Shown here piece after piece: positions 3,687 to 51,757 of a stretch of DNA of 64,000 bases. The translations under genes were made by a program, and so were the position numbers. Source of the DNA: Eledone cirrhosa (lineage: Eukaryota); contig OZ024742.1 in assembly GCA_964016885.1 (NCBI GenBank), positions 51,956,001 to 52,020,000 on the forward strand, in the 5' to 3' direction. The notes beneath the pieces are model-generated. The model saw only the letters and a list, made by a program, of their open reading frames with translations, was not told where the DNA came from and made no database searches. Numbering within the stretch: the first letter of the stretch is position 1; every line of letters starts with the position of its first letter.

Positions 3687-4008
3687 TGTATATATATAAA
3701 TATATATATATATAAAAACAAATAACGAAACGAAATTAAATTTCGTTTCGTTTGTAACTCACTTTTGTATGACTGACGCTTAAACAATTAAGTTAAAAAT
3801 GTACATCCACATATGTATACTGAAATACTAGTATGCATATGAATACACACACGTGTACATATGTAGATGTACCGAGTTTTTCACTGGTCACTTTACTGTG
3901 AGTGTCCAGCTATTCTGTATGTAAACACACAGACAAACCGGTTTTTAGAGTCATACTGGTTTTTGAGGAAACACCTTTCCTCTATTCTCCAGAAAGCCAG
4001 ACAAGGAA

Positions 4009-4049
4009 TATTGGACTAGTTTCGATGCTGTTACATCTCATCAGCAATA
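4009..4049 (-). ncRNA. Minimal type I hammerhead ribozyme
   Basis: Minus strand: tattg CTGATGA gatg-taacag-catc GAAA ctag TC caata. 5-bp stem I, 4-bp stem II, palindromic CTAG stem III, GUC site. Confidence 0.9.
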
Positions 4050-4246
4050 ATAACCTATCTTCCGGCCTTTCTAGAGAATCGTAAAAGCACATATCGTTAT
4101 ATGCTTTTTCTATGAAAATTAGTAGTGGGCAGACTAATTTGCATAGAGCGTGAGTTTTAATCATTTTCTGGGTTAGAAAATGATTAAAACGAAATTATTA
4201 TTCAGAATATTAATAAATGAAGACATTCACATAATCAAAATATATG

Positions 4247-5529: not shown

Positions 5530-6079
5530 TCAATATTTTTTTAGAAATTTGTATAATGCTTGAAAGGTTTTTCCAGACTTATGTAGACAGCTTCCAAATA
5601 ATTCTTTCTTCATATTAATTAAATTACCATAATTTGTAATTATTAATACAGTTTCTAAATTGCAAAGATTGCAATTTGGTGAAATGGAAGCGTTTCGGTA
5701 GGAATCAGAATTCTTTAATTTACTCGAAGAAATTGAGTATTTAATATTTTTCTCTTTCAAAGACCATATTAATTGTGATAGTGATGTTGAAAATTTTTTA
5801 TCTGGATTAGAAAACGAATGTTTATGATTGGAAAAGCAAAACTTAAAGTTCGATGAAGTGGCACCAATGTAGTTATAAGTATTATTATTATTTATTTTAA
5901 TGGTACATTTATAAACTAGATTCTTGTCAAGGCAATTATTTTGTAAAGGGCATTCAGATTTCCTTCTACAGTTACAATTCAATTCAACGTTATTTCTATA
6001 ACCTAAACTATTCGTATTATCATTATTATTTCTAGGTGTTCTATTTAAACTATTGTTATTGTTATTCATATTAACTAAT

Positions 6080-6138
<59 letters not shown>

Positions 6139-7200
6139 GTTATTATCGCTAATTATATGCTGGTTCGAATTAAGAATTTTACTATTAATTTTTGCAATAT
6201 TTTGAGCAATATTCATAGTTGTTGAATAAGAGAGTTTAACTGTGTCTATTGAAGATCGAGTAATACTTATGTTATCTATGGAAACATTTATCCCAGGCTT
6301 TAAAAAATAAATGTGCTACAGGTGTTTTAATAGCTAAGGATGCTGGCGGAGCATACCAAATTATAGATCTAGTCCTTATTTTTTCCTCGATTTATTCCTC
6401 AAGTTGTTGTTTTTACAGTCAGTTCTATTTTTTATTATTATGCATATTGTGTTTATAATTAATATTATTTTTTTTCTACATATTCAATATTATTTTTTAT
6501 ATCCTGCTTTATGTAACGCTTCAATATAATATACAGCCTTACTATTAAATATGGATCTATTAGCAGATAGTCTGGTTATTCGTTGTTGGACACTATTGAC
6601 TATTGCATTTTTAACACTTTTAAGATGATTACAGTAAAAGCTTTAGATTAGAGTAATTTAAGTTTTCATTGAGTTTATGGAAGGGGTAATACAAGCCTGA
6701 GTTTAAATTAAGAGTTACATCTAAAAAATGAACTATTTTATTGTTATTTTCTACTTCTAATATCAGGTCATAATTTTTAAAGAATTCTATAATTACTTTC
6801 TTTACTCTATTTAATTAGCTATTATTATGCCTAACAACAGTAAATAATATGTCGTCTCTATATAAACCACCGGTAATCTCCGGCAGTTTTCTATTTATCA
6901 TATTAAGGATGAAAATTCCCACAAGATCGGTAACTTGCGCCGAATCAGACGAGCCCATTGTAATGTCAAAGTTATTCTGTCTATCAGATCTAGTCCAAAA
7001 TCATTATTAAAATCGATCAAGGTTCCCCTTGCCGTTAAAATAATATTAATCTCGTCACTAGATAGATCCGCGTGTTTATATGCATATGAAAGCGCCTTAT
7101 TTAGTAGGTTAGGAGTTATTGAGGAATAATAACTCGCTATGTCCATTTGGATGAATTTATGATTTTTCATATTTTTAATATTATTGAACCAATTTATGAC
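5530..7200 (-). pseudogene. PLE reverse transcriptase + GIY-YIG endonuclease (frameshifted, 5'-truncated)
   Basis: QMDIASYYSSI (RT motif A), GGLYRDD, YSTTMN, CNCRRKSECPL, LVYKC...YIGAT, CNLC..E, CLH. Confidence 0.9.
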
Positions 7201-7377
7201 TTCACCCTCCTTATACCCATATCTCGCTCCACATCCTCTGCTTCATTAAATTTAAATTTAAGTTTATCATGTTATTATTTGTGGTATATAAATGTTGATA
7301 TTTGTTGTAATAAATCACTGCCAATACTGGAATTTAACCATCAAGACCGGTGAGTATGTCTTACATCACTTAATGTA

Positions 7378-26699: not shown

Positions 26700-29156
26700 T
26701 CCTGACTTTTTGCGAGGCTTGGAATGTAGAAGAAGCTTTATGTTGGCAATTTGAGAATAATTCATTTTTTTTTAAATTAAATTTTCATAATTAGTAATTA
26801 TTAATAGGGTCTCCATAGTACAAAAATTGCAGTTAGGTGATATTGAAGAATTCAAGTAGATTCGTCTATTACACAGCTTTGACCTAGAAATCGAGTATTT
26901 TAAATTTTTGTCTTTTAATGACCATATAAGTTGTGATAAAGAAGTCGAAAATTTCCTATTAGGATTCGAAAAGGAACATTTGTGATTCGAAAATCTTAAT
27001 TTACATGTCGATGAAGTTGCACCAATATAGTTGTATGTGATGTTATTTGCTTTTGCTGTGCATTCATAGACCAGATTGCTATCCAGATAATTATTTTGCA
27101 GAGGGCAATTTGATCTATTTCCTCAATTACATTTCGATTTATTGTTATTATTATAAATTGGACAATTTACATTAACATTGCTAGTACTTTGAAGTGTTCT
27201 ATTGATAGTGCTTAAATTAATGTTATTGTTATTCCTAGTGTTAATATTGCTAGTGTTATTATGTTCATTATCCCTAATTGTTTGTTGGTTATGATTTAGA
27301 ATTCTACTATTTATTTTTGCAATGTTCTGGGCCATATTCATAGTTGTAGAATAAGAAAGTTTAATTGTGTGTCTGTTAAATATGGAACGGTATTTATGTT
27401 ATATGGGGAAGCATTTATCTAAAGCTTTGAAGAATAGATTTTCGAGTGGTCTTTTGATTGCCTCAGATGCGGGAGGAGCAAACCATATAACTGATTTAGT
27501 TCTGATTTTTTTCCCCGATTTATTCACTGTATTTTGTGTTTGTATTATAATTTTTAGAATCTCGTTTATTTATGTTAGTCTTATTTTTACCAGGATTATA
27601 ATTCAAATTATTATTATCTATATATTCAATATTATTTTTATAATCTGCCTAACTTTGCCTTTCATCTATACGGGGTCGATAAAATAAAGTACCAGTAATG
27701 AACTGGGTTTTTGCTGGCCTTGTGCCAAAAGTAGAAACAATTATTTTTATAACCTGCCTTACGTAGCCGGTCATTATAATATCCTGCCTTTTCATCAAAT
27801 ATGGATTTATTAGCGGATATTCTAGTTATGCGTTTCTGTACACTATTGACTATTGCATTTTTCAGGGATTTAGAGTTATTAGAGTAATAGCTAACGTAAT
27901 TTAAGTTTTCATTGGACTTATGGAAAGGGTAATAAAATCCTGAGTTTAAGTTAAGGGTAACGTCAAGGAAATTAACTATTTTGGTACTACTTACAACTTC
28001 TAATTTAAGGTCGTAATTTTTAAAGAATTCAATTATAGCCTTCTTAACCCTATTTAGTTCTGTATTGCTATGCTTGACAACCGTAAATAAAATATCGTCC
28101 CTATATAAACCACCGGTAATCTCCGGCAGTTTTCTATTTACCATATTTAAGATAAAAATCCCCAGAAGATCGGTGACTTGCGCAGAGTCCGATGATCCCA
28201 TGGTAATGTCGAAGTTTCTATTCCTATCTGAACGGGTCCAATTCTCATTGTTGAAATTAATTAGAGTTCTTCTCGCAGTTAATATGATATTGATTTCATC
28301 TGCAGTTAGATCTGTATGTTTGTAAGCATAAGACAAAGCTTTATATAATAGGTTAGGTGTAATAGAAGAAGAAGAACTTGCTATGTCCATTTGGATGAAT
28401 TCGTGATTTTTCCTATTTTCTATATTTTTAAACCAGTCGAATACTTCATTAGTGTCCTTCCATAAGCTCAATTTTGACTTCAATTTCAGAGTTGGTAAAG
28501 TTCTATCAATAATATTCTTACTGATTACTCCAATATCCGATTTAGATGGAGCTATCGTTCTAACAAGCACGTCTTTATCAAAGTTTCTCTTGTGATCCTT
28601 AAAATTTATCCTCGGCTGTCTAGGTATAAAAGGCCCGGTTCTTCCTTCAATTCCAAGTTTGGCCATTAATTTAAACGCGTCATTATTGATATCTATAAGA
28701 TCTTCGGCCGGGGCTTTTCTATAACTTTTCCGCAGTTCTTTTAAAATTAAATCATTATATTCAGCTTTATCTATCCCATATAAGTTGTTGGTTTTGTCTG
28801 ACTTCACCAGTATTTTATTAACTTTTTTTATATCCAAGATTTTTCCTTTAGAGTTCTAAGGTATTGGTGACCTTTATATGGGTTTTTCTTGAATTTAATC
28901 TTCTTTAGTATATTAAGCATTTCTGTTTCAAAATCCTCCAGCAGTTTGTTGTATGGAGGATTTTTCTCGATTTAAAAATGGTTTCGAAATAATTGTTGTT
29001 GCTTTCACTTTTAGCTTCATTGTTTTCGAAATGAAATGCACGACATTTCACTCTTCTTATAAATGAGTTTGTTTGCTCAATGAGCTTCCTCGTGTATTCC
29101 TCATTAGATGGTATAAGTATATCCTTGAGAGATGTCGGGGCGGTGAAGAATTCCAT
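26700..29156 (-). pseudogene. PLE RT + GIY-YIG ORF (frameshifts, stop, SINE insertion)
   Basis: SLKDILIPS, KSDKTNN, KDHK, QMDIAS, FDITMGSSDSAQ, GGLYRDD, NFLDVT, YPFHK, then CN*GNRSNCPL and YIGATS. Confidence 0.92.
27651..27739 (+). mobile_element. Truncated SINE inserted in the PLE ORF, ~20-bp TSD
   Basis: aactttgcctttcatc...ggggtcgataaaataaagtaccag, flanked by attatttttataa(t/c)ctgcct at 27631-50 and 27740-59. Confidence 0.88.
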
Positions 29157-30606: not shown

Positions 30607-31712
<1,106 letters not shown>

Positions 31713-32630: not shown

Positions 32631-34838
32631 TGAGAATGTGAGTGAGTGAGAAGTGTGACCTTGTATGACCTTCTTACCATATAATATCTAATTATTGATT
32701 CCAATATTCTAAGCTCATGTACTCTAATAGGCCAGAAACATACCCGTTGCAGTCACTGAAGTTACTCTCGTCAAATATATTGACATTTTGTTTTATTTTT
32801 TACCTTTTAAAATCGGTGAAAATATGTTATCGGATAATCGTAGTTATTTAAAGCCTTTGACTCACTGTATGAAATATGTGAGACCCTATTATATTAGGAT
32901 TTAATATGCAAAATCTACCCTGAGCTGTTTCCCCTTGTTTCTATTATAAACGAAAGGTATCATACATTGATTTTTGTATTCATTCATATATTTTACAATA
33001 TCTGTTCGCCAAATCACATTTAAACATACACCCCTGCCCCGTCGTAATATAGCGGAGATGAATTTCATTCTCTCAATCCCCAAATTTAAGCTGCTACAAT
33101 TTAAATTCCACCGGGATTATGAAGTTGACAGCATTCACTGAAATTATTTATTTATTTTACTGAAGCTAGCAATGTGTGTCTCAATCATGTATGATTTTAT
33201 AATTGAAAAAATATATTGTTATTTGTCACAGTAGATTAATATATTGAGGTTGGCTTTTTACAGATATAGTCGAATGAGAGATTTAACCGAAAAATAAAGT
33301 TATAAACAAAAATATATAAGACAACTTTGTAATAAATGAATGATATATGGTTCACTTTGCTCTTCTTTATATATTTTGTGTTATAAGAGCTTCAAATAAT
33401 TACATGAATTTAACTTAGAAGATAGACTTGAAAAATTGCCAAAGAATGACTTATTTCTTATAGAGTTTTATAATATTTGTAGTTGAGTGTGTGGTTACTG
33501 TTAGACGTGTCTAATAACTATTACATCCAATAAAATCATTGTCTTTTCATTTTAGCTTTTCTAATATTTTAGTTCTCAGAATCACGTGTTTTTTTGTCTC
33601 AGATTGTTCCTCTAAAAACAATGACGATTTATGTTACATGAGGGGTGTAGAGATAGAGAGATCCATAAGCTGAAAAACCAATTTTTCAATCAATATCTCA
33701 ATATTTTCATTTTCAGGCTGCATTCCACTCTTGCTTACATGAAAAGCATATATGCATTTTAGCATTAAAATATCTATTTTACCATATCTCTCATGTTTTA
33801 TATCAGTAAAATTGTGTCAATCTACTGATGACTTTCGCACACATCATTCTTGGGTATTATATGTTTAATGAAATCTATCATGTATAATGTTACTAAAGTT
33901 GTGTCAGTCTACCGAACTCTTTCGCGCGCTTTCCGCCGTCATGTTAAGCTATTATATATTTTGATATTAGTCTTCATAAGCAATAACATCAAACAGAAAT
34001 TATATGCAGTACCACTAACGAGAATTGAAAAATGTGTTTATCGTTTTACATGCCAATTACACTACAGAATATCTAATATAATTTACATAGTAAACTTTCT
34101 GATTAATTAATTACGTATGATTTTAAACTCGTCTTTTTCAGTTGAATTAAACTATAACATATAAATCGTTAGTAAATGAAATGTATTTATGTTGTAAAAC
34201 CAACATTCTTGGATCAATATTTAGAATTTTTAATGTATGTAGTTTTATGTAAGATATTAGAAAATGAGCAATAGATTAAGAGTATGCTATGATTTTCTAT
34301 AAATTGAACATGAATTTATTCAGAAATATTCCTATCCCGTTCACGTGGATAGAAATCTAATGATAAAACACACATATCTGGGAAACATAAAGTGAATTAA
34401 ACTCCCCTAAAGCAAAGACGGTTATACTAGATAACTATCAATCTAACACAAACATCAACTGTAAAATTATTCCATAAAACAGTAAAACAATATTTTTTAA
34501 ATAATTATATATACATATATGTACATGATTATATAAACATACACACACACGCGCGCACATACCACACACTTACACTCACAAACATATGAATATATGAGAA
34601 TTTCGTATATCTAATGTTATGCGGAAAGTTTACGAATAAATATTTGGAAAGCCATTTAGCATTGAAAAGCTGGTGGTTAACGCCGTCTAGCGAAATCCAA
34701 CAGAAGATGCAGGAGACAACTGCCAACGCGGCTCGAAAAAACGTTTCCTGCAGCTATTTTAATTACAGAGGACAACTGTGAGTTTTTAACTCAATATATA
34801 CTTTTCATAATATATATATATATATAGGAGAAAGTATG

Positions 34839-34937
34839 ACCCCGACGGCAGAACTCAAGCCGTTTCGACGGCTATTTCTGGACAATAGCAAGTATATTTT
34901 TAGTCTGGTAAATAAATAGCTGAACTTTTCAAGGGGT
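34839..34937 (-). ncRNA. Hammerhead ribozyme, U3-A8 core variant
   Basis: acccc TTGAAAA gttcagcta...tagccgtc GAAA cggc-ttgagttct-gccg TC ggggt. Confidence 0.72.
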
Positions 34938-35659
34938 ACTTCCTTATAGGGGGAGATTGTAGTTGTCACGAGGATTGGTCAAAATTTGTATCAGACACAG
35001 AAAGTCTATCATGGCAGTGGGTGCGGGGTGTGGATGGCTAACTTGCCTGTAGAACGATAGGGGAGTGGTAGAGTCGGTCAAGCGTAGATGGTGAAATGTA
35101 CACAGCAAATTCTAAGGAATGTGTATGAAAGTAGGTCAGTGGAGGTTGGCGAAAAAATGTTTCTTTAGAAAGTGGAGTAGGGACGTTATAGAAATAGTAA
35201 ATCAAATGCGATTAGGGGACAATGAAAAAATATAATAAAATATGAGACAGATATGTAAGAATTTAAGATTGGAAAGTGAGAAATGAAATAAAACTAAGGA
35301 GTCTAACACAGCTGCTATATTTAGTTGGTGCTGCTATTTCGGCCAAAACCACAGAATGATTTGCGAGATGAGAATTATTGAAAATTTAGAATTAAAATTA
35401 ATACCACATCTCTGGGGTCTAACACAGCCGCTATGAATAGTTAGTAAAGCGTAATCGGCGAATGCTATCTGTAAGTTACTGGGGTGAGGGTACTGAGGCT
35501 AAAGAGGCCCGATTGGCTGCCTCAGGGTAGGCGAAAGGGGGAAAAAAAGAAACGAACGAGGAAGAAATTCGGTGGTGGAAAGAAGTGATAGGAGGAGACA
35601 AAGGGAAAGAGAAAACATAGAGGAAAAGGAAAGAGGTACATTTACCTATATAAGTAGGG

Positions 35660-37200
35660 GTTTTCTCTATCTTATTCGGCAAGTGGGGTGTTTCAGCCCT
35701 AGTCTACCCACTCGGATCGTTAGGGGTTTTGAGGGCGAGGTAACTCTTCCGCAATCTGTGATTGCGTGCAGTTACCATTTCGTCATTTCTGTTTAGTTGA
35801 TCCTTCGTAAACAGCATTTGTAATGTTTCCTCCGAGCATAAGTTACACGGACGGCGTCCTCCCGTGTAAGAGTTGGCTCTGGAAAGTAAGCTCCAAGTAA
35901 GATGGTAAGTTATATTATTATCTTGGAGGTCCCAGATATGGCCCGAAATTGTGGTGGCATGTCGCTGGACCGGGTTTCGGAACGTATGTCGGTGTTGGTA
36001 GAGCCGGGTCTTAAAGACCCAAGCGGTTAATCCTATATAAGCTTTGTTGGAGGTAGATCACGTTACGTTCTCGGCATCTGTTGTTGAGGGGGCACGTATA
36101 TCTATCAGGGCAGTTACACCTCCTAGTCGACTCTCCACTAATTTGTAGGTTGTTTCTTCCATAGGGGTTGAGTCTTTTGTTGTTTGAGAAGACGATGTTT
36201 TGTGCGAAGTTAGGTGTGGTGTTGTAGGATAGCTTGATAGTGTTTTTGTTGATTATGTTGTGGTAGCGGTGTTGTGGTGGAAAGTGTTTTTGAGGAGCCT
36301 AAAGAAGATTTTCCCGATAGGTGTTGCCACCTCGTCATTGTGGGGAGGATTGAACCACGTTACGTGGCGTGAGCGGCGGCGTCGCCTGCTGGTTCAGCTA
36401 GGGGAAGCTGGATAAAAGTATATTTCCACCCGGAAGCCACTCTGCTTGAGGGCCTGGTTGTAGTGAGGCGCATGTTCATCGAATAACTGCTCATTAGCCG
36501 ACAAACGAGATATGCGGAGGGAGATGTTTTTAAACAGATTATTGGTGATGATTCTAGGATCGTTTGAGCGGCGGTGGATGTAGTGCAGGTTGTCGTTTGG
36601 TTTCCTGTATGGGTAGTACAGCTCATTTTCGAGGTTGAGGGTAACTCCAGTGACGTTTGTAGGGTGATTTTAAATCCCGAGTCCCGCAAAAAGTTGATAA
36701 GTTGTTTACGGACCCGGTCTGTACTAATGGGGTTGTACCCTTTGAGGGTAAGGGGTCCATCGTCTCGGTACAATCCACCGCCGAATGCGGGAAACATTTC
36801 GGTGAGTTAAAATAGTAGGAAAAATCCTATAAGACCTCGGCCGAATCAGTCGCGCCCATTCTGACGTCGAAGACTGAGTCCGGGGTTGTCTTTATCCAAT
36901 AAGAGTTGTCGAAAAGTAGAAATGTACTCCTGGCGTGGAGAATGATATTTCTTTCCTGGTCGGTAATGGGCGCGAGTGTTTCGGCAAAGTCCAAGGCGAC
37001 CCTAAGGAGCTGTAAGGTAATAGATGCATAGTAACTCTCTATGTCAAACTGGATGAATTTTGAGTCCCGTTTGTCCTCAATATTCCTGAACCATGAGATT
37101 ACTTCCTGGGTGCTAACCCATAGGCTAAGTCTCGCGTTTTGCTTAACTTTTGGTATAACGCGGTCTAGGATGTTTTTACTTATTCTCCCAATGTCCGACA
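35660..37200 (-). pseudogene. PLE RT + GIY-YIG remnant (family C, more GC-rich)
   Basis: QFDIESYYASI, FDVRMGATDSAE, GGLYRDDG, and a C-terminal CNLCSEE...LN. Confidence 0.88.
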
Positions 37201-38239
37201 TTCGGGCCATATCTAGGACCTCCAAGATAATAATATAACTTACCATCTTACTTGGAGCTTACTGTCCAGAGCCAACTCTTACACAGGAGGACGCCGTCCG
37301 TGTAACTTATGCTCGGAGGAAACATTACAAATGCTGTTTACGAAGGATCAACTTCTAAACAGAAATGACGAAATGGTAACTGCACGCAATCACAGATTGC
37401 GGAAGAGTTACCTCGCCCTCAAACCCCCTAACGATCCGAGTGGGTAGACTAGGGCTGAAACACCCCACTTGCCGAATAAGATAGGGAAAACCCCTACTTA
37501 TATAGGTAAATGTACCTCTTTCCTTTTCCTCTATGTTTTCTCCTTCCCTTTGTCTCCTCCTATCACTTCTTTTCACCACCGAATTTCTTACTCGTTCGTT
37601 TCTTTGTGTTTTTTTCCCTTTCGCCTACCCCGAGGCAGCCAATCGGGCCTCTTTAGCCTCAAAACTCCCACCCCAGAAACTTACAGATAGCATTCGCCGA
37701 TTACACTATACTAATTATTCATAGCAGCTGTGTTAGACCCCAGAGACGTGGTAATAATTTTTAATTCTAAATTTTCAATAATTCTCATCTAGCAACTCAT
37801 TCTATAGCTTTGGCCGAAATGGCGGCACCAACTAAATATAGCAGCTGTGTTAGACTCCTTAGATTTATTTAACTTCTCACTTTCCAATCTTACATTCTGA
37901 TACATCTTTCTCTCATTTTCTTTTATTATATTCTCTTTTATTTTATTTTTCATTGTCCCATAATCGCATTTGATTTACTATTTCTATAACGTCCCTACTC
38001 CACTTTCTAAAGAAACATTTTTTCGCCAACCTCCACTGGCCTACTTTCATACACATTCCTTAGAATTTGCCGTGTAGATTTGACCTTCTACGCTTGACCG
38101 GCTCTACCCACTCCCCTATCGTGCTACAGGCAAGTTCAGCCATCCCCACCCCGCACCCACTGTCATGATAGACTTTTCTGTGTCTGCTCCATATTTTGAC
38201 CAATCCTCTTGACAACTACAATATTCCCATGTAAGGATT

Positions 38240-38337
38240 ACCCCTTGAAAAGTTCGGCTATTTATTTACCAGACTAAAAAACTCTTACTTTATTCGAGAA
38301 CTAGCTGTTGAAACGGCTAGAGCTCTGCCGTCGGGGT
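38240..38337 (+). ncRNA. Hammerhead ribozyme, U3-A8 core variant (other arm)
   Basis: acccc TTGAAAA gttcggcta...tagctgtt GAAA cggc..gccg TC ggggt. Confidence 0.7.
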
Positions 38338-38443
38338 CATACTTTCTCCTATTACCCACTACTATTACCCACACTACCCTAAGTATTGAGTACTTTGGTG
38401 CGTTATGGTCCATCTGGTTCCTTGCCACAACTCATTCGTTATA

Positions 38444-44270: not shown

Positions 44271-44321
44271 AGAATTAGCCGACGAAACGGCTTGAGCTCA
44301 GCTGTCGGGGTCTTACTGGTT

Positions 44322-44362
<41 letters not shown>

Positions 44363-44683
44363 ATAATAATAAATAATAAATAATAAATAATAAATAATAA
44401 ATAAATATATATATAATAATAATAAATAATAATATATATATATAGTAATAATAATAAAATTGAAGACTAAAATCCAAAGAGGGCTCGATATATATATATA
44501 GGAAAAGAGTCAGGAGCACGACGGCTGAGCTCCGGCCATTTCGACGGCTAGATCCGAAAACTAGCTGTCGAAACGGCTGGAGCTCAGCCATCGGGATCCT
44601 GACTCTTTTCCTATTACCCACTCTACTACCCTAAGTATTGGTGCGTTATGGTCCACCTGATTTCTTACCACACCTTCTTCCTT
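44271..44683. mobile_element. Two short family C terminal fragments (44271-44323; mini fold-back 44498-44683)
   Basis: tagccg..GAAAcggct..agccgtcggg half-HHR and attacccactctactaccc tail. Confidence 0.72.
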
Positions 44684-44793
44684 ATATATATATATATATA
44701 AGTATACAAATATTTCCGGGGAAAAGGTAAAGGAAGGAGTGTTCTATGTATAGTACTGAGCTATTTATTTTATGTAATAAACAATATAATTAT

Positions 44794-48758: not shown

Positions 48759-50577
48759 TATATATATATGGGGGTTAAGTGTGTGTGTATGTGTGGATAT
48801 GAATGTGTGTATGTCTGAGTGTGTGTGTGTTTGTATATACTTAAATATTTTCCTAAACAATTTAAAGAGGATATTTCTGATCAAATTCAAATATCATTAA
48901 AAATCTTATAACGCATGTTTTTACTTCAGTTCAAAGGACTACTACAATAACAGCATGTTTTGTTTCAATTCAGTGCTGATTTAATTCCTACCAACACAAA
49001 ACCTTGCTATCCAGCAAATGTTTTCTATCACCTTTACTAAGATCAAATAGGATGGTCGAATTTTAGTATACTACCATTGGTTCTGAGATTTCATTCAAAC
49101 TCAATCTCTAAAATAATGAACTGATCCAATCGTCAAATCGGACCAAGAAAGCTACTTTTCCGTTGGTCTTTCCAGTGTTAATGTTATGTCTGTATCGTCA
49201 TTCAACGCAAAGCCGTCACCATATTTCTGGTGACAGGCGGCTGTATTTGAAGTCAAAACGTACACAGCCATAATAGAGAATGGAAAACATAACGTCATAC
49301 AATTTGAAAATTCTGTTATTCCACGGGATGTCATTTATATCGACTTCACATACATAGAAAACAAAGTTTACATGTGGGGTGGGATTTGACATAAGAGCGT
49401 AGAGAGCAGAACGCATACTGAAACATTTAATCTGACCATCTAACGACTTGGTCAATTCGCTTTTTCTGTAAATGCATATGTAAATATGCATAATTCAAAT
49501 AGCGAAAACGTCTTACTTTATGGGAGTCAATGTTCTTCAACCTAGAATTGAGCAAGTAAAAGCAAAGGCAAATAAAACTGCGGTTCACTTAACAAATGTA
49601 AAATTGAGAAGTGATAAATAATTGATTTTGTTAGATACTTGAACTGATTTAATGGTCTCTAATAGGTTGAATCAAGATTAGAAGTTAACCGTTGTTTCAC
49701 GCACCACTGTACGAGAAAAATGAACTAAGACGTTGAATAAAGTTTCCAAGAACTAACCATTATACTCCATTGTTTCTGCATACATCAATGTAAATTCATC
49801 ACATACTATACGATGTGAATTCCTCTCAGATTAATGGGAGGACAATTAGTTTCTGTAAGACACATGTATACAACACGGATATGAAATTCCATTGATATTG
49901 TATACATATAATATTAATGCGGGTACGATTCTACAAGCATACAAGATTTATTAACATTCGAAATCTGAAAATGTGTTATTGGAACAAAACTAACAATAAC
50001 CGAGCTTAGAAAATATCGGGCAATAATGCCAGTAACTGCTGTAAAATTATGGATGGAAATAAAAACATTGAAAGAGAACAGACAAACATTCAGAACACTA
50101 ATGGAATATTTGATCGTTTAAGCATTTCCTAGAACGTTGGCACACAAATCTTATTGAAATTGAAACATTGCTATCCATAAAAGTGGATTGAGAGAAAGGA
50201 AGGTTCGGAAAGAAAAAAAAGTGACAATGTAATTGCCTAAACAAATATTCTGCCAGTGAAGCAGGTAATTACTGTAAGAATAAGGAGAAGAAAACCTATT
50301 TCCATTTTGTAATAAGCTAATTACTGTCTTTCCAAATCGAAATGAATTCTTCATTTTCATTCGTTTCTATCCTGTCATCTTGAAATTGTATAGAATTGTC
50401 AAATTAATTTTGATACGAAAACAATAGCCTATATATATGCATGTGATTGTGAGTGTGTAACATATGTGTGCAAAATGTTTAATTTGTATAGGTATAGTAA
50501 ATTTTACGCACACATGTATGTATATCTATATGTAGGTCGAAACGGCTTGAGCTCTGCCGTCGGTGTCATACTTTTTC

Positions 50578-50655
<78 letters not shown>

Positions 50656-51620: not shown

Positions 51621-51757
51621 ATAGGAAAATGTCCAAGACCCTGACGGCGGAGCTTCTCCGTCGGGGTTTTGAACATTTTCCTATTACCCACTCTACTACC
51701 CGAAGTATTGAGTACTCTTGTGCGTTATGGTCCACCTAGTTCCTTACCACACCTTTT
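51621..51757 (+). mobile_element. Family C terminal mini fold-back (another fragment at 50536-50580)
   Basis: ggaaaatgtccaagaccctgacgg...ccgtcggggttttgaacattttcc hairpin plus family C tail. Confidence 0.7.

Follow-up and report, generated by a model that had tools for sequence, protein, structure and literature searches.

The locus considered here raises the question of whether a hammerhead whose core has U3-A8 in place of C3-G8 is a fully compensated ribozyme, a weak one, or a motif that no longer cuts, and what it would do for the element that carries it. The window, that is, the whole stretch of DNA analysed (64,000 nt of Eledone cirrhosa; GCA_964016885.1, contig OZ024742.1, forward-strand positions 51,956,001 to 52,020,000), has at positions 34824 to ~38439 a single insertion into (TA)n, made up of a minus-strand PLE copy and, inverted relative to it, a plus-strand arm. 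Identity between the arms is 91% across ~1,147 nt, and each carries one hammerhead motif.

In the right arm, the sequence of a type I hammerhead runs from 38240 to 38337 (plus strand): ACCCC (38240-38244), TTGAAAA (38245-38251, with U3 at 38245 and A8 at 38250), the stem II region, GAAA (38310-38313), CGGC/GCCG, TC (38331-38332) and GGGGT (38333-38337), with the predicted cut between 38332 and 38333. The left-arm motif (34839..34937, minus strand), placed by sequence and fold, has TTGAAAA at 34932-34926, GAAA at 34866-34863 and C17 at 34844, with a predicted cut between 34844 and 34843. The preliminary description had given this layout for both arms, and the sequence bears it out; the CTGAGAA core, with A8, that it reported for a relative at 31484 is also there (31489-31495, in a hammerhead at 31484..31579, plus strand, with a private G12A at 31552), and that relative belongs to a sister lineage with a C3·A8 mismatch. 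The expected core is present around three helices (U4 G5 A6 N7, A9, G12 A13 A14, A15.1-U16.1 and H17); the 3-8 pair is a Watson-Crick U-A in the subfamily of the window arms and is absent in the C3·A8 lineage.

Stem II had been described as a helix of about 60 nt. The length is right (58 nt, 38252..38309, plus strand), but the region is composite rather than a single helix: a closing pair is followed by a 2x1 loop, then ~9 bp, an internal loop, ~7 bp and a loop; its 3' strand has the family motif TTAGTC (TTATTC in this copy), and C11.1 of the right arm has changed to T. A stem III sufficient for a monomer holds as to length (5-6 bp, 99% paired), but folding as a dimer is also open, because loop III carries the palindrome GAGCTC. 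In metazoan PLE min-HHRs helix III is absent or of 1-2 bp and dimers are obligate; besides its longer helix III, the present motif departs from them in a second respect, the spacing of 7 nt from stem I to G10.1.

Both window copies are probably inert. Each has private stem II damage and folds poorly into a hammerhead, with a probability for stems I and III of 0.002 (right arm) and 0.16 (left arm), against 0.93 for a near-master copy, L004. In unconstrained folding, the three-way junction is the minimum-energy fold both for L004, a member of subfamily A, to which the window arms belong, and for the youngest copies with intact ORFs (L121/L122); most C3 copies favour a competing fold, and the window arms likewise lack the three-way junction as their minimum-energy fold. 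Neither arm is among the 150 of 159 Rfam hits listed for the window, in line with the earlier suggestion that CUGANGA-type searches miss this family.

Comparison by tblastn and blastn with an intact sister unit (L122), together with the ORFs, shows the minus-strand copy (34824..37200) to be 5'-truncated and frameshifted; it contains RT from about residue 203 of the 717-aa sister ORF, a GIY-YIG endonuclease, 3' UTR and hammerhead, and terminates ~20 nt past the predicted cut, at (TA)n. Its coding region (35707..37198, minus strand) is broken into three frames (aa 203-324, 326-388 and 391-717, RT to endonuclease), with ~82% nucleotide identity to L122. The inverted arm (37201..38439, plus strand) holds the endonuclease C-terminus (aa 628-717), 3' UTR, hammerhead and a ~100-nt tail, followed by (TA)n. 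The original assignment to the PLEs holds; Pfam gave nothing above cut-off for four window frames. A search of the same genome with the endonuclease frame gave 52,912 candidates, 150 of which were scored, and three loci chosen for long open frames (L121-L123) contain tandem units that are intact and 3,542-3,545 nt long; their 717-aa ORF begins ~190 nt past the predicted cut. DKT and RWR are present in these ORFs, in a part where the window copy is truncated, and CNCPDRSIC (the CxCX5C linker), CNLC (CxxC), CKH (CxH) and the C-terminal AYIG of GIY-YIG were read by eye in all three; the family's insertions have (TA)n targets, as in the Hydra clade. By motifs read by eye, rather than by a tree, the host element is a Hydra-type PLE. 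L121 (G000:C1:91473000-91482999) is a tandem array whose 3.54-kb units, at least three in number, are nearly identical (99.8% for two of them) and have open frames of 784-786 aa; it is likely a recently active master.

Other PLE-related sequence is scattered through the window. A diverged remnant lies at 5554-7203, and ~1.5 kb past it, at 3991-4062 (minus strand), Rfam lists a type I hammerhead that has the canonical core CTGATGA and a helix III with the palindrome CTAG. Another PLE RT/endonuclease, diverged and broken, occupies 26766-28855 (minus strand); it shares 43% identity with the L122 ORF, and a scan of the sequence downstream turned up no hammerhead. Stubs of the same family as the window arms, some inverted, lie in (TA)n at 24674-24860, 44271-44326, 44488-44688, 50536-50581 and 51660-51751; these short stubs hold only the hammerhead 3' half and the tail. 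In the list of Rfam hits, two microsatellite-rich stretches, 16685-17510 and 19600-20431, appear as mirror images on opposite strands, which suggests a long inverted duplication.

Is U3-A8 the state of the family, or a peculiarity of these copies? In the 30 best loci for the window arm (44 arms, a query-based set biased toward the query), TTGAAAA is found in 41/44 arms, U3 in 43/44 and A8 in 44/44. Because of that bias, a genome-wide count was made that placed no constraint on the core. It gave 7,147 exact matches to the family pattern, against none for the reversed control, so the motif is not a product of chance. Among the first 100 matches, read by hand, 73 are U3-A8, 25 C3·A8 and 2 U3·G8, with no C3-G8. 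Genome-wide there are 4,367 U3-A8 matches (with four C's in the stem I pattern), 1,475 C3·A8 matches and, with a slightly looser pattern, 71 G8 matches, including 11 canonical ones. U3-A8 is thus fixed in the subfamily of the window arms and is the majority state of the wider family; a canonical CTGANGA consensus, of which these copies would be decayed forms, is ruled out by the same counts at positions 3 and 8. Across subfamilies, N7 takes all four letters while positions 4-6, 8 and 9 are near invariant. This pairing of a free N7 with a fixed core is, in these alignments, a hammerhead signature, and it fixes the normal register for most of the family; a register lacking N7 throughout the family is ruled out by U3 copies with C7 and T7. 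Within 23 chosen copies, the stem pairs hold in 90.4% of 644 cells and covariation is 0.080, vs at most 0.061 when slid, and is also above shuffles, the double changes counting as few events because they come mostly from one distant subfamily.

The proposal that the family had fixed a covariant core holds for subfamily A; a sister lineage is fixed for the mismatch. CTGAGAA is present in 38/38 arms of the 30 best loci for the 31484 copy (G12A, giving AAAA, in 2 of the 38), so that this relative belongs to a lineage of its own, to which the 1,475 C3·A8 matches attach, and lends no support to compensation. A tree built with the core masked, from 47 copies chosen to represent the range of subfamilies, is a ladder that leads from subfamily A (U3) through C3 copies, on several branches with strong support, to further U3 copies. 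Position 3 must have changed twice on it, and the C3 rows as a single group are rejected (p-AU 1.9e-5). Measured against the majority of each group, median divergence is 0.035 in A, 0.033 and 0.023 in the two C3 groups, 0.004 in the intact-ORF group (4 rows) and 0.034 in one U3 group near that end. On our reading the order would be U3 to C3 to U3, with an insecure root: the outgroup is too distant and attaches at different places, so the order of subfamilies rests on tip lengths. The minimum-energy folds given above agree with this order. With a C3·A8 lineage between two U3 lineages, the 3-8 pair would have been broken through many rounds of transposition. One subfamily adjoining the first C3 copies (L103, L113 and L119) has five C's before TTGACAA, and loss of one T in a sequence of this type could have created C3.

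A different kind of evidence comes from where insertions end, with positions numbered from the predicted cut. Downstream of it (38333..38439, plus strand, in the window), tail lengths aligned to L122 have two peaks, with 88 of 245 arms at +20 and 68 at +103; by analogy these are likely start sites of reverse transcription. Short insertions were counted in the B/D tail types, with subfamily A lying outside this set: 18,931 matches keep C17 and 1,032 are without it. Of the matches with C17, the first 100 divide into 66 with an end at -35 to -49 (upstream-end values above ~44 include chance and microhomology), 24 with an end within 30 nt and 10 that extend past the whole motif, with none at -50 to -132; contigs of run X2 have loose ends at -45, -44 and -41. 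The upstream stop sits at TTAGTY inside stem II, a motif kept even in a distant subfamily and one that resembles an initiator element. The insertion ends and the initiator consensus are the basis for reading the stop, at about -41, as a likely internal start site. An apparent excess of cap-derived G before -41 (17/36 vs 20/171) was set aside as confounded by microhomology with the inverted arm.

Among the first 90 of the 1,032 loci without C17, 51 begin exactly at +1, for an estimated 585 in all (95% interval 473-692). In 23 of the 51, the two inverted arms each terminate at +1 and flank 1-6 untemplated letters, mostly A/T; another 5 lie directly on (TA)n, and 23 have other junctions, some of them microhomology-guided. 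Two control positions were counted. At +5, 5 of 30 read from 571 matches were truncations (estimate 95, 32-198), and none of the 5 has a symmetric untemplated junction; at -7, 20 of 30 read from 403 matches were (estimate 269, 190-333), and in our reading 18 of these 20 are explained by a repeated AGCCGT motif, the other 2 being plain. Relative to these two positions, ends at +1 are ~sixfold above +5 and ~twofold above the repeat-guided hot spot at -7. At least two contigs around the cut, both in one run, end at +1, a count that weighs neither for nor against cleavage; one RNA run (share 0.08) gave 0 contigs. In several copies (L241, L242, L251-L253, L263 and L269), helix III is deleted precisely between two AGCCGTC repeats, which suggests template jumps across the hairpin.

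The stubs also bear on the mismatch. The mostly-C3 tail type makes up 15/51 of the +1 stubs, vs 33/100 at baseline (p 0.66), so there is no depletion. If C3·A8 were never cut, its expected share would be roughly 12% (p 0.0007), but against that expectation the cleanest class has 4/23 (p 0.30), and the C3 share of this tail type is only roughly known. The absence of depletion can be read in two ways: the mismatch is tolerated, or the end does not come from catalysis. With ~585 at +1 against ~95 at +5, the +1 stubs in the sister subfamilies likely record cleaved RNA, and the pattern suggests that RNA of the family is likely cut at this site in the animal, even in the C3·A8 sub-lineage.

What, then, would the ribozyme do? 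The reading favoured here, at a probability of about 0.6, is that the motif is a pseudo-LTR type I hammerhead of a Hydra-type PLE, with a fixed U3-A8 pair, and is likely a weak and partly dispensable self-cleaver. Transcription would start inside stem II, at about -41, and for that reason the upstream repeat of the transcript would lack the 5' half of the ribozyme, the downstream repeat having the whole motif. Reverse transcription would begin at +20 or +103, past the cut, and would have to cross an uncut site to copy the gene; fast cleavage would therefore cost the element copies, and selection would act against it. It is this need to start downstream of the cut that makes a weak, partly dispensable ribozyme the best model. 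A fraction of the RNA would still be cut, and reverse transcriptase running off at +1 would leave tiny stubs. Against weak self-cleavage stand the -7 truncations, which are only ~twofold below +1, and the low activity of U3-A8 in one mutagenesis study (PMC9901934); nor was a loop I-II tertiary contact identified. A stronger version, in which hundreds of stubs are marks of cleavage in vivo, thousands of copies mark a promoter start in stem II, and the ribozyme has been tuned down because reverse transcription crosses the uncut site, with C3·A8, long retained, still cutting, is put forward tentatively and seems on balance doubtful. If true, it would provide a naturally occurring hammerhead that is active with no Watson-Crick pair between positions 3 and 8, and it would bear directly on the role of PLE hammerheads.

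Three other explanations have to be set beside weak self-cleavage. The main rival, of rather low probability, is a relic that has no catalytic activity and has been retained because it serves the RT/endonuclease and the internal promoter in folding or recognition, with the +1 ends arising as reverse-transcription stops at the three-way junction or by symmetric trimming of palindromic insertions. The persistence of the C3·A8 mismatch along several strongly supported branches of the ladder and the undepleted +1 stubs of the mostly-C3 tail would both follow, and catalysis is dispensable in vitro for another PLE (PMC11167929). Conservation, however, obeys hammerhead rules (N7 free, core fixed), and the youngest lineage is U3 again, has gained a second stem II pair and folds best. 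Nor do the stubs look like stalls or trimming: a stall at the hairpin should copy C17, which the counted stubs lack, and the symmetric untemplated junction is seen in 0/5 truncations at +5.

The opposite view, that of the preliminary description, takes the hammerhead to be monomeric and fully active, with complete compensation by U3-A8 and a requirement for cleavage. The majority status of U3-A8 and a stem III of 5-6 bp speak for it, as does natural U3-A8 covariation described as compensatory (PMC3088659); in the full pairwise mutagenesis reported in PMC9901934, however, only the G3-C8 swap rescued the 3-8 pair and U3-A8 had low activity, so that rescue appears to depend on context. Full activity is improbable for two further reasons: about a fifth of matches (1,475/7,147) belong to a successful mismatch lineage, and the copying of every insertion that includes the gene passed over a site that was uncut (or re-ligated). 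Improbable too is a shift of register confined to the C3 lineage, in which C3 would pair with G7, giving a CUGA-GA core plus an extra A before G10.1 and a hammerhead without N7. G7 is indeed present in 95 of the first 100 C3 matches, C3 and G7 arise on the same stretch of the tree, and PLE hammerheads, as described in PMC4209133, typically carry one additional base ahead of 10.1. But G7 is the commonest letter in U3 copies too, so that the link may be one of descent alone, and in the rest of the family the normal register is set by the occurrence of U3 together with C7, T7 and A7.

By itself the U3-A8 core is of small consequence, being already published. Natural U3-A8 hammerhead pairs were reported in 2011 (Perreault et al., PMC3088659), and U3-A8 PLE hammerheads of S. 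mansoni, with the UUGAAAA seen here, in 2014, with a dedicated descriptor and ~1,300 hits (Cervera and De la Pena, PMC4209133), a UUGAAAAA core being given in the supplement of the latter; any novelty claimed for the U3-A8 PLE hammerhead as such therefore lapses. The present family is a further example of that variant, unusual in its long stem II and complete helix III within a Hydra-type host; what raises it above this are the lineage with the mismatch and the footprint at +1. The full-text literature consulted, with most subscription papers outside it, contained no fixed C3·A8 lineage and no peak of insertion ends at a PLE hammerhead cut. The role of PLE hammerheads is described as unclear (PMC8557442). 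The family offers a natural allelic series (U3-A8, C3·A8 and a return to U3-A8, along with changes in N7 and the stems), spread over thousands of copies that can be dated. Since it also has tandem masters that are intact and insertion ends from which RNA 5' ends can be mapped, the role of a PLE hammerhead becomes cheap to test.

Among known systems, the hammerheads set out in PMC3088659 have the same core covariation, with no fixed C3·A8 lineage reported there, unlike in the present family. The Cercyon PLEs, as presented in PMC4209133, share the type I form, the location in PLE pseudo-LTRs, U3-A8, a palindromic helix III region and a long helix II; the present motif differs in its helix III of 5-6 bp, its 58-nt stem II region and its Hydra-type host, and in having no extra base between A9 and G10.1, with 7 nt from stem I to G10.1. 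With the Hydra-clade PLEs described by Craig et al. (2021, PMC8557442) the host element has in common DKT, RW-R/K, CxCX5C, CxxC, CxH and GIY-YIG at the C-terminus, as well as (TA)n targets and inverted truncated arms. The unit here is longer (~3.5 kb, vs generally <3 kb), and the Hydra-clade hammerheads in File S2 of that paper are all ctgaNga, with C3-G8 and short stems II and III, where those here are U3-A8. A parallel in mechanism is Poseidon PAc of Anolis (Frangieh et al., 2024, PMC11167929), in which two RT start sites past the cut likewise define the tail. By that account, reverse transcription of PAc starts internally, past the cut, and ribozyme-dead RNA inserted normally in vitro; PAc has C3-G8 and, in the data given there, no RNA reads ending at the cut, whereas in Eledone cirrhosa insertion ends pile up at it.
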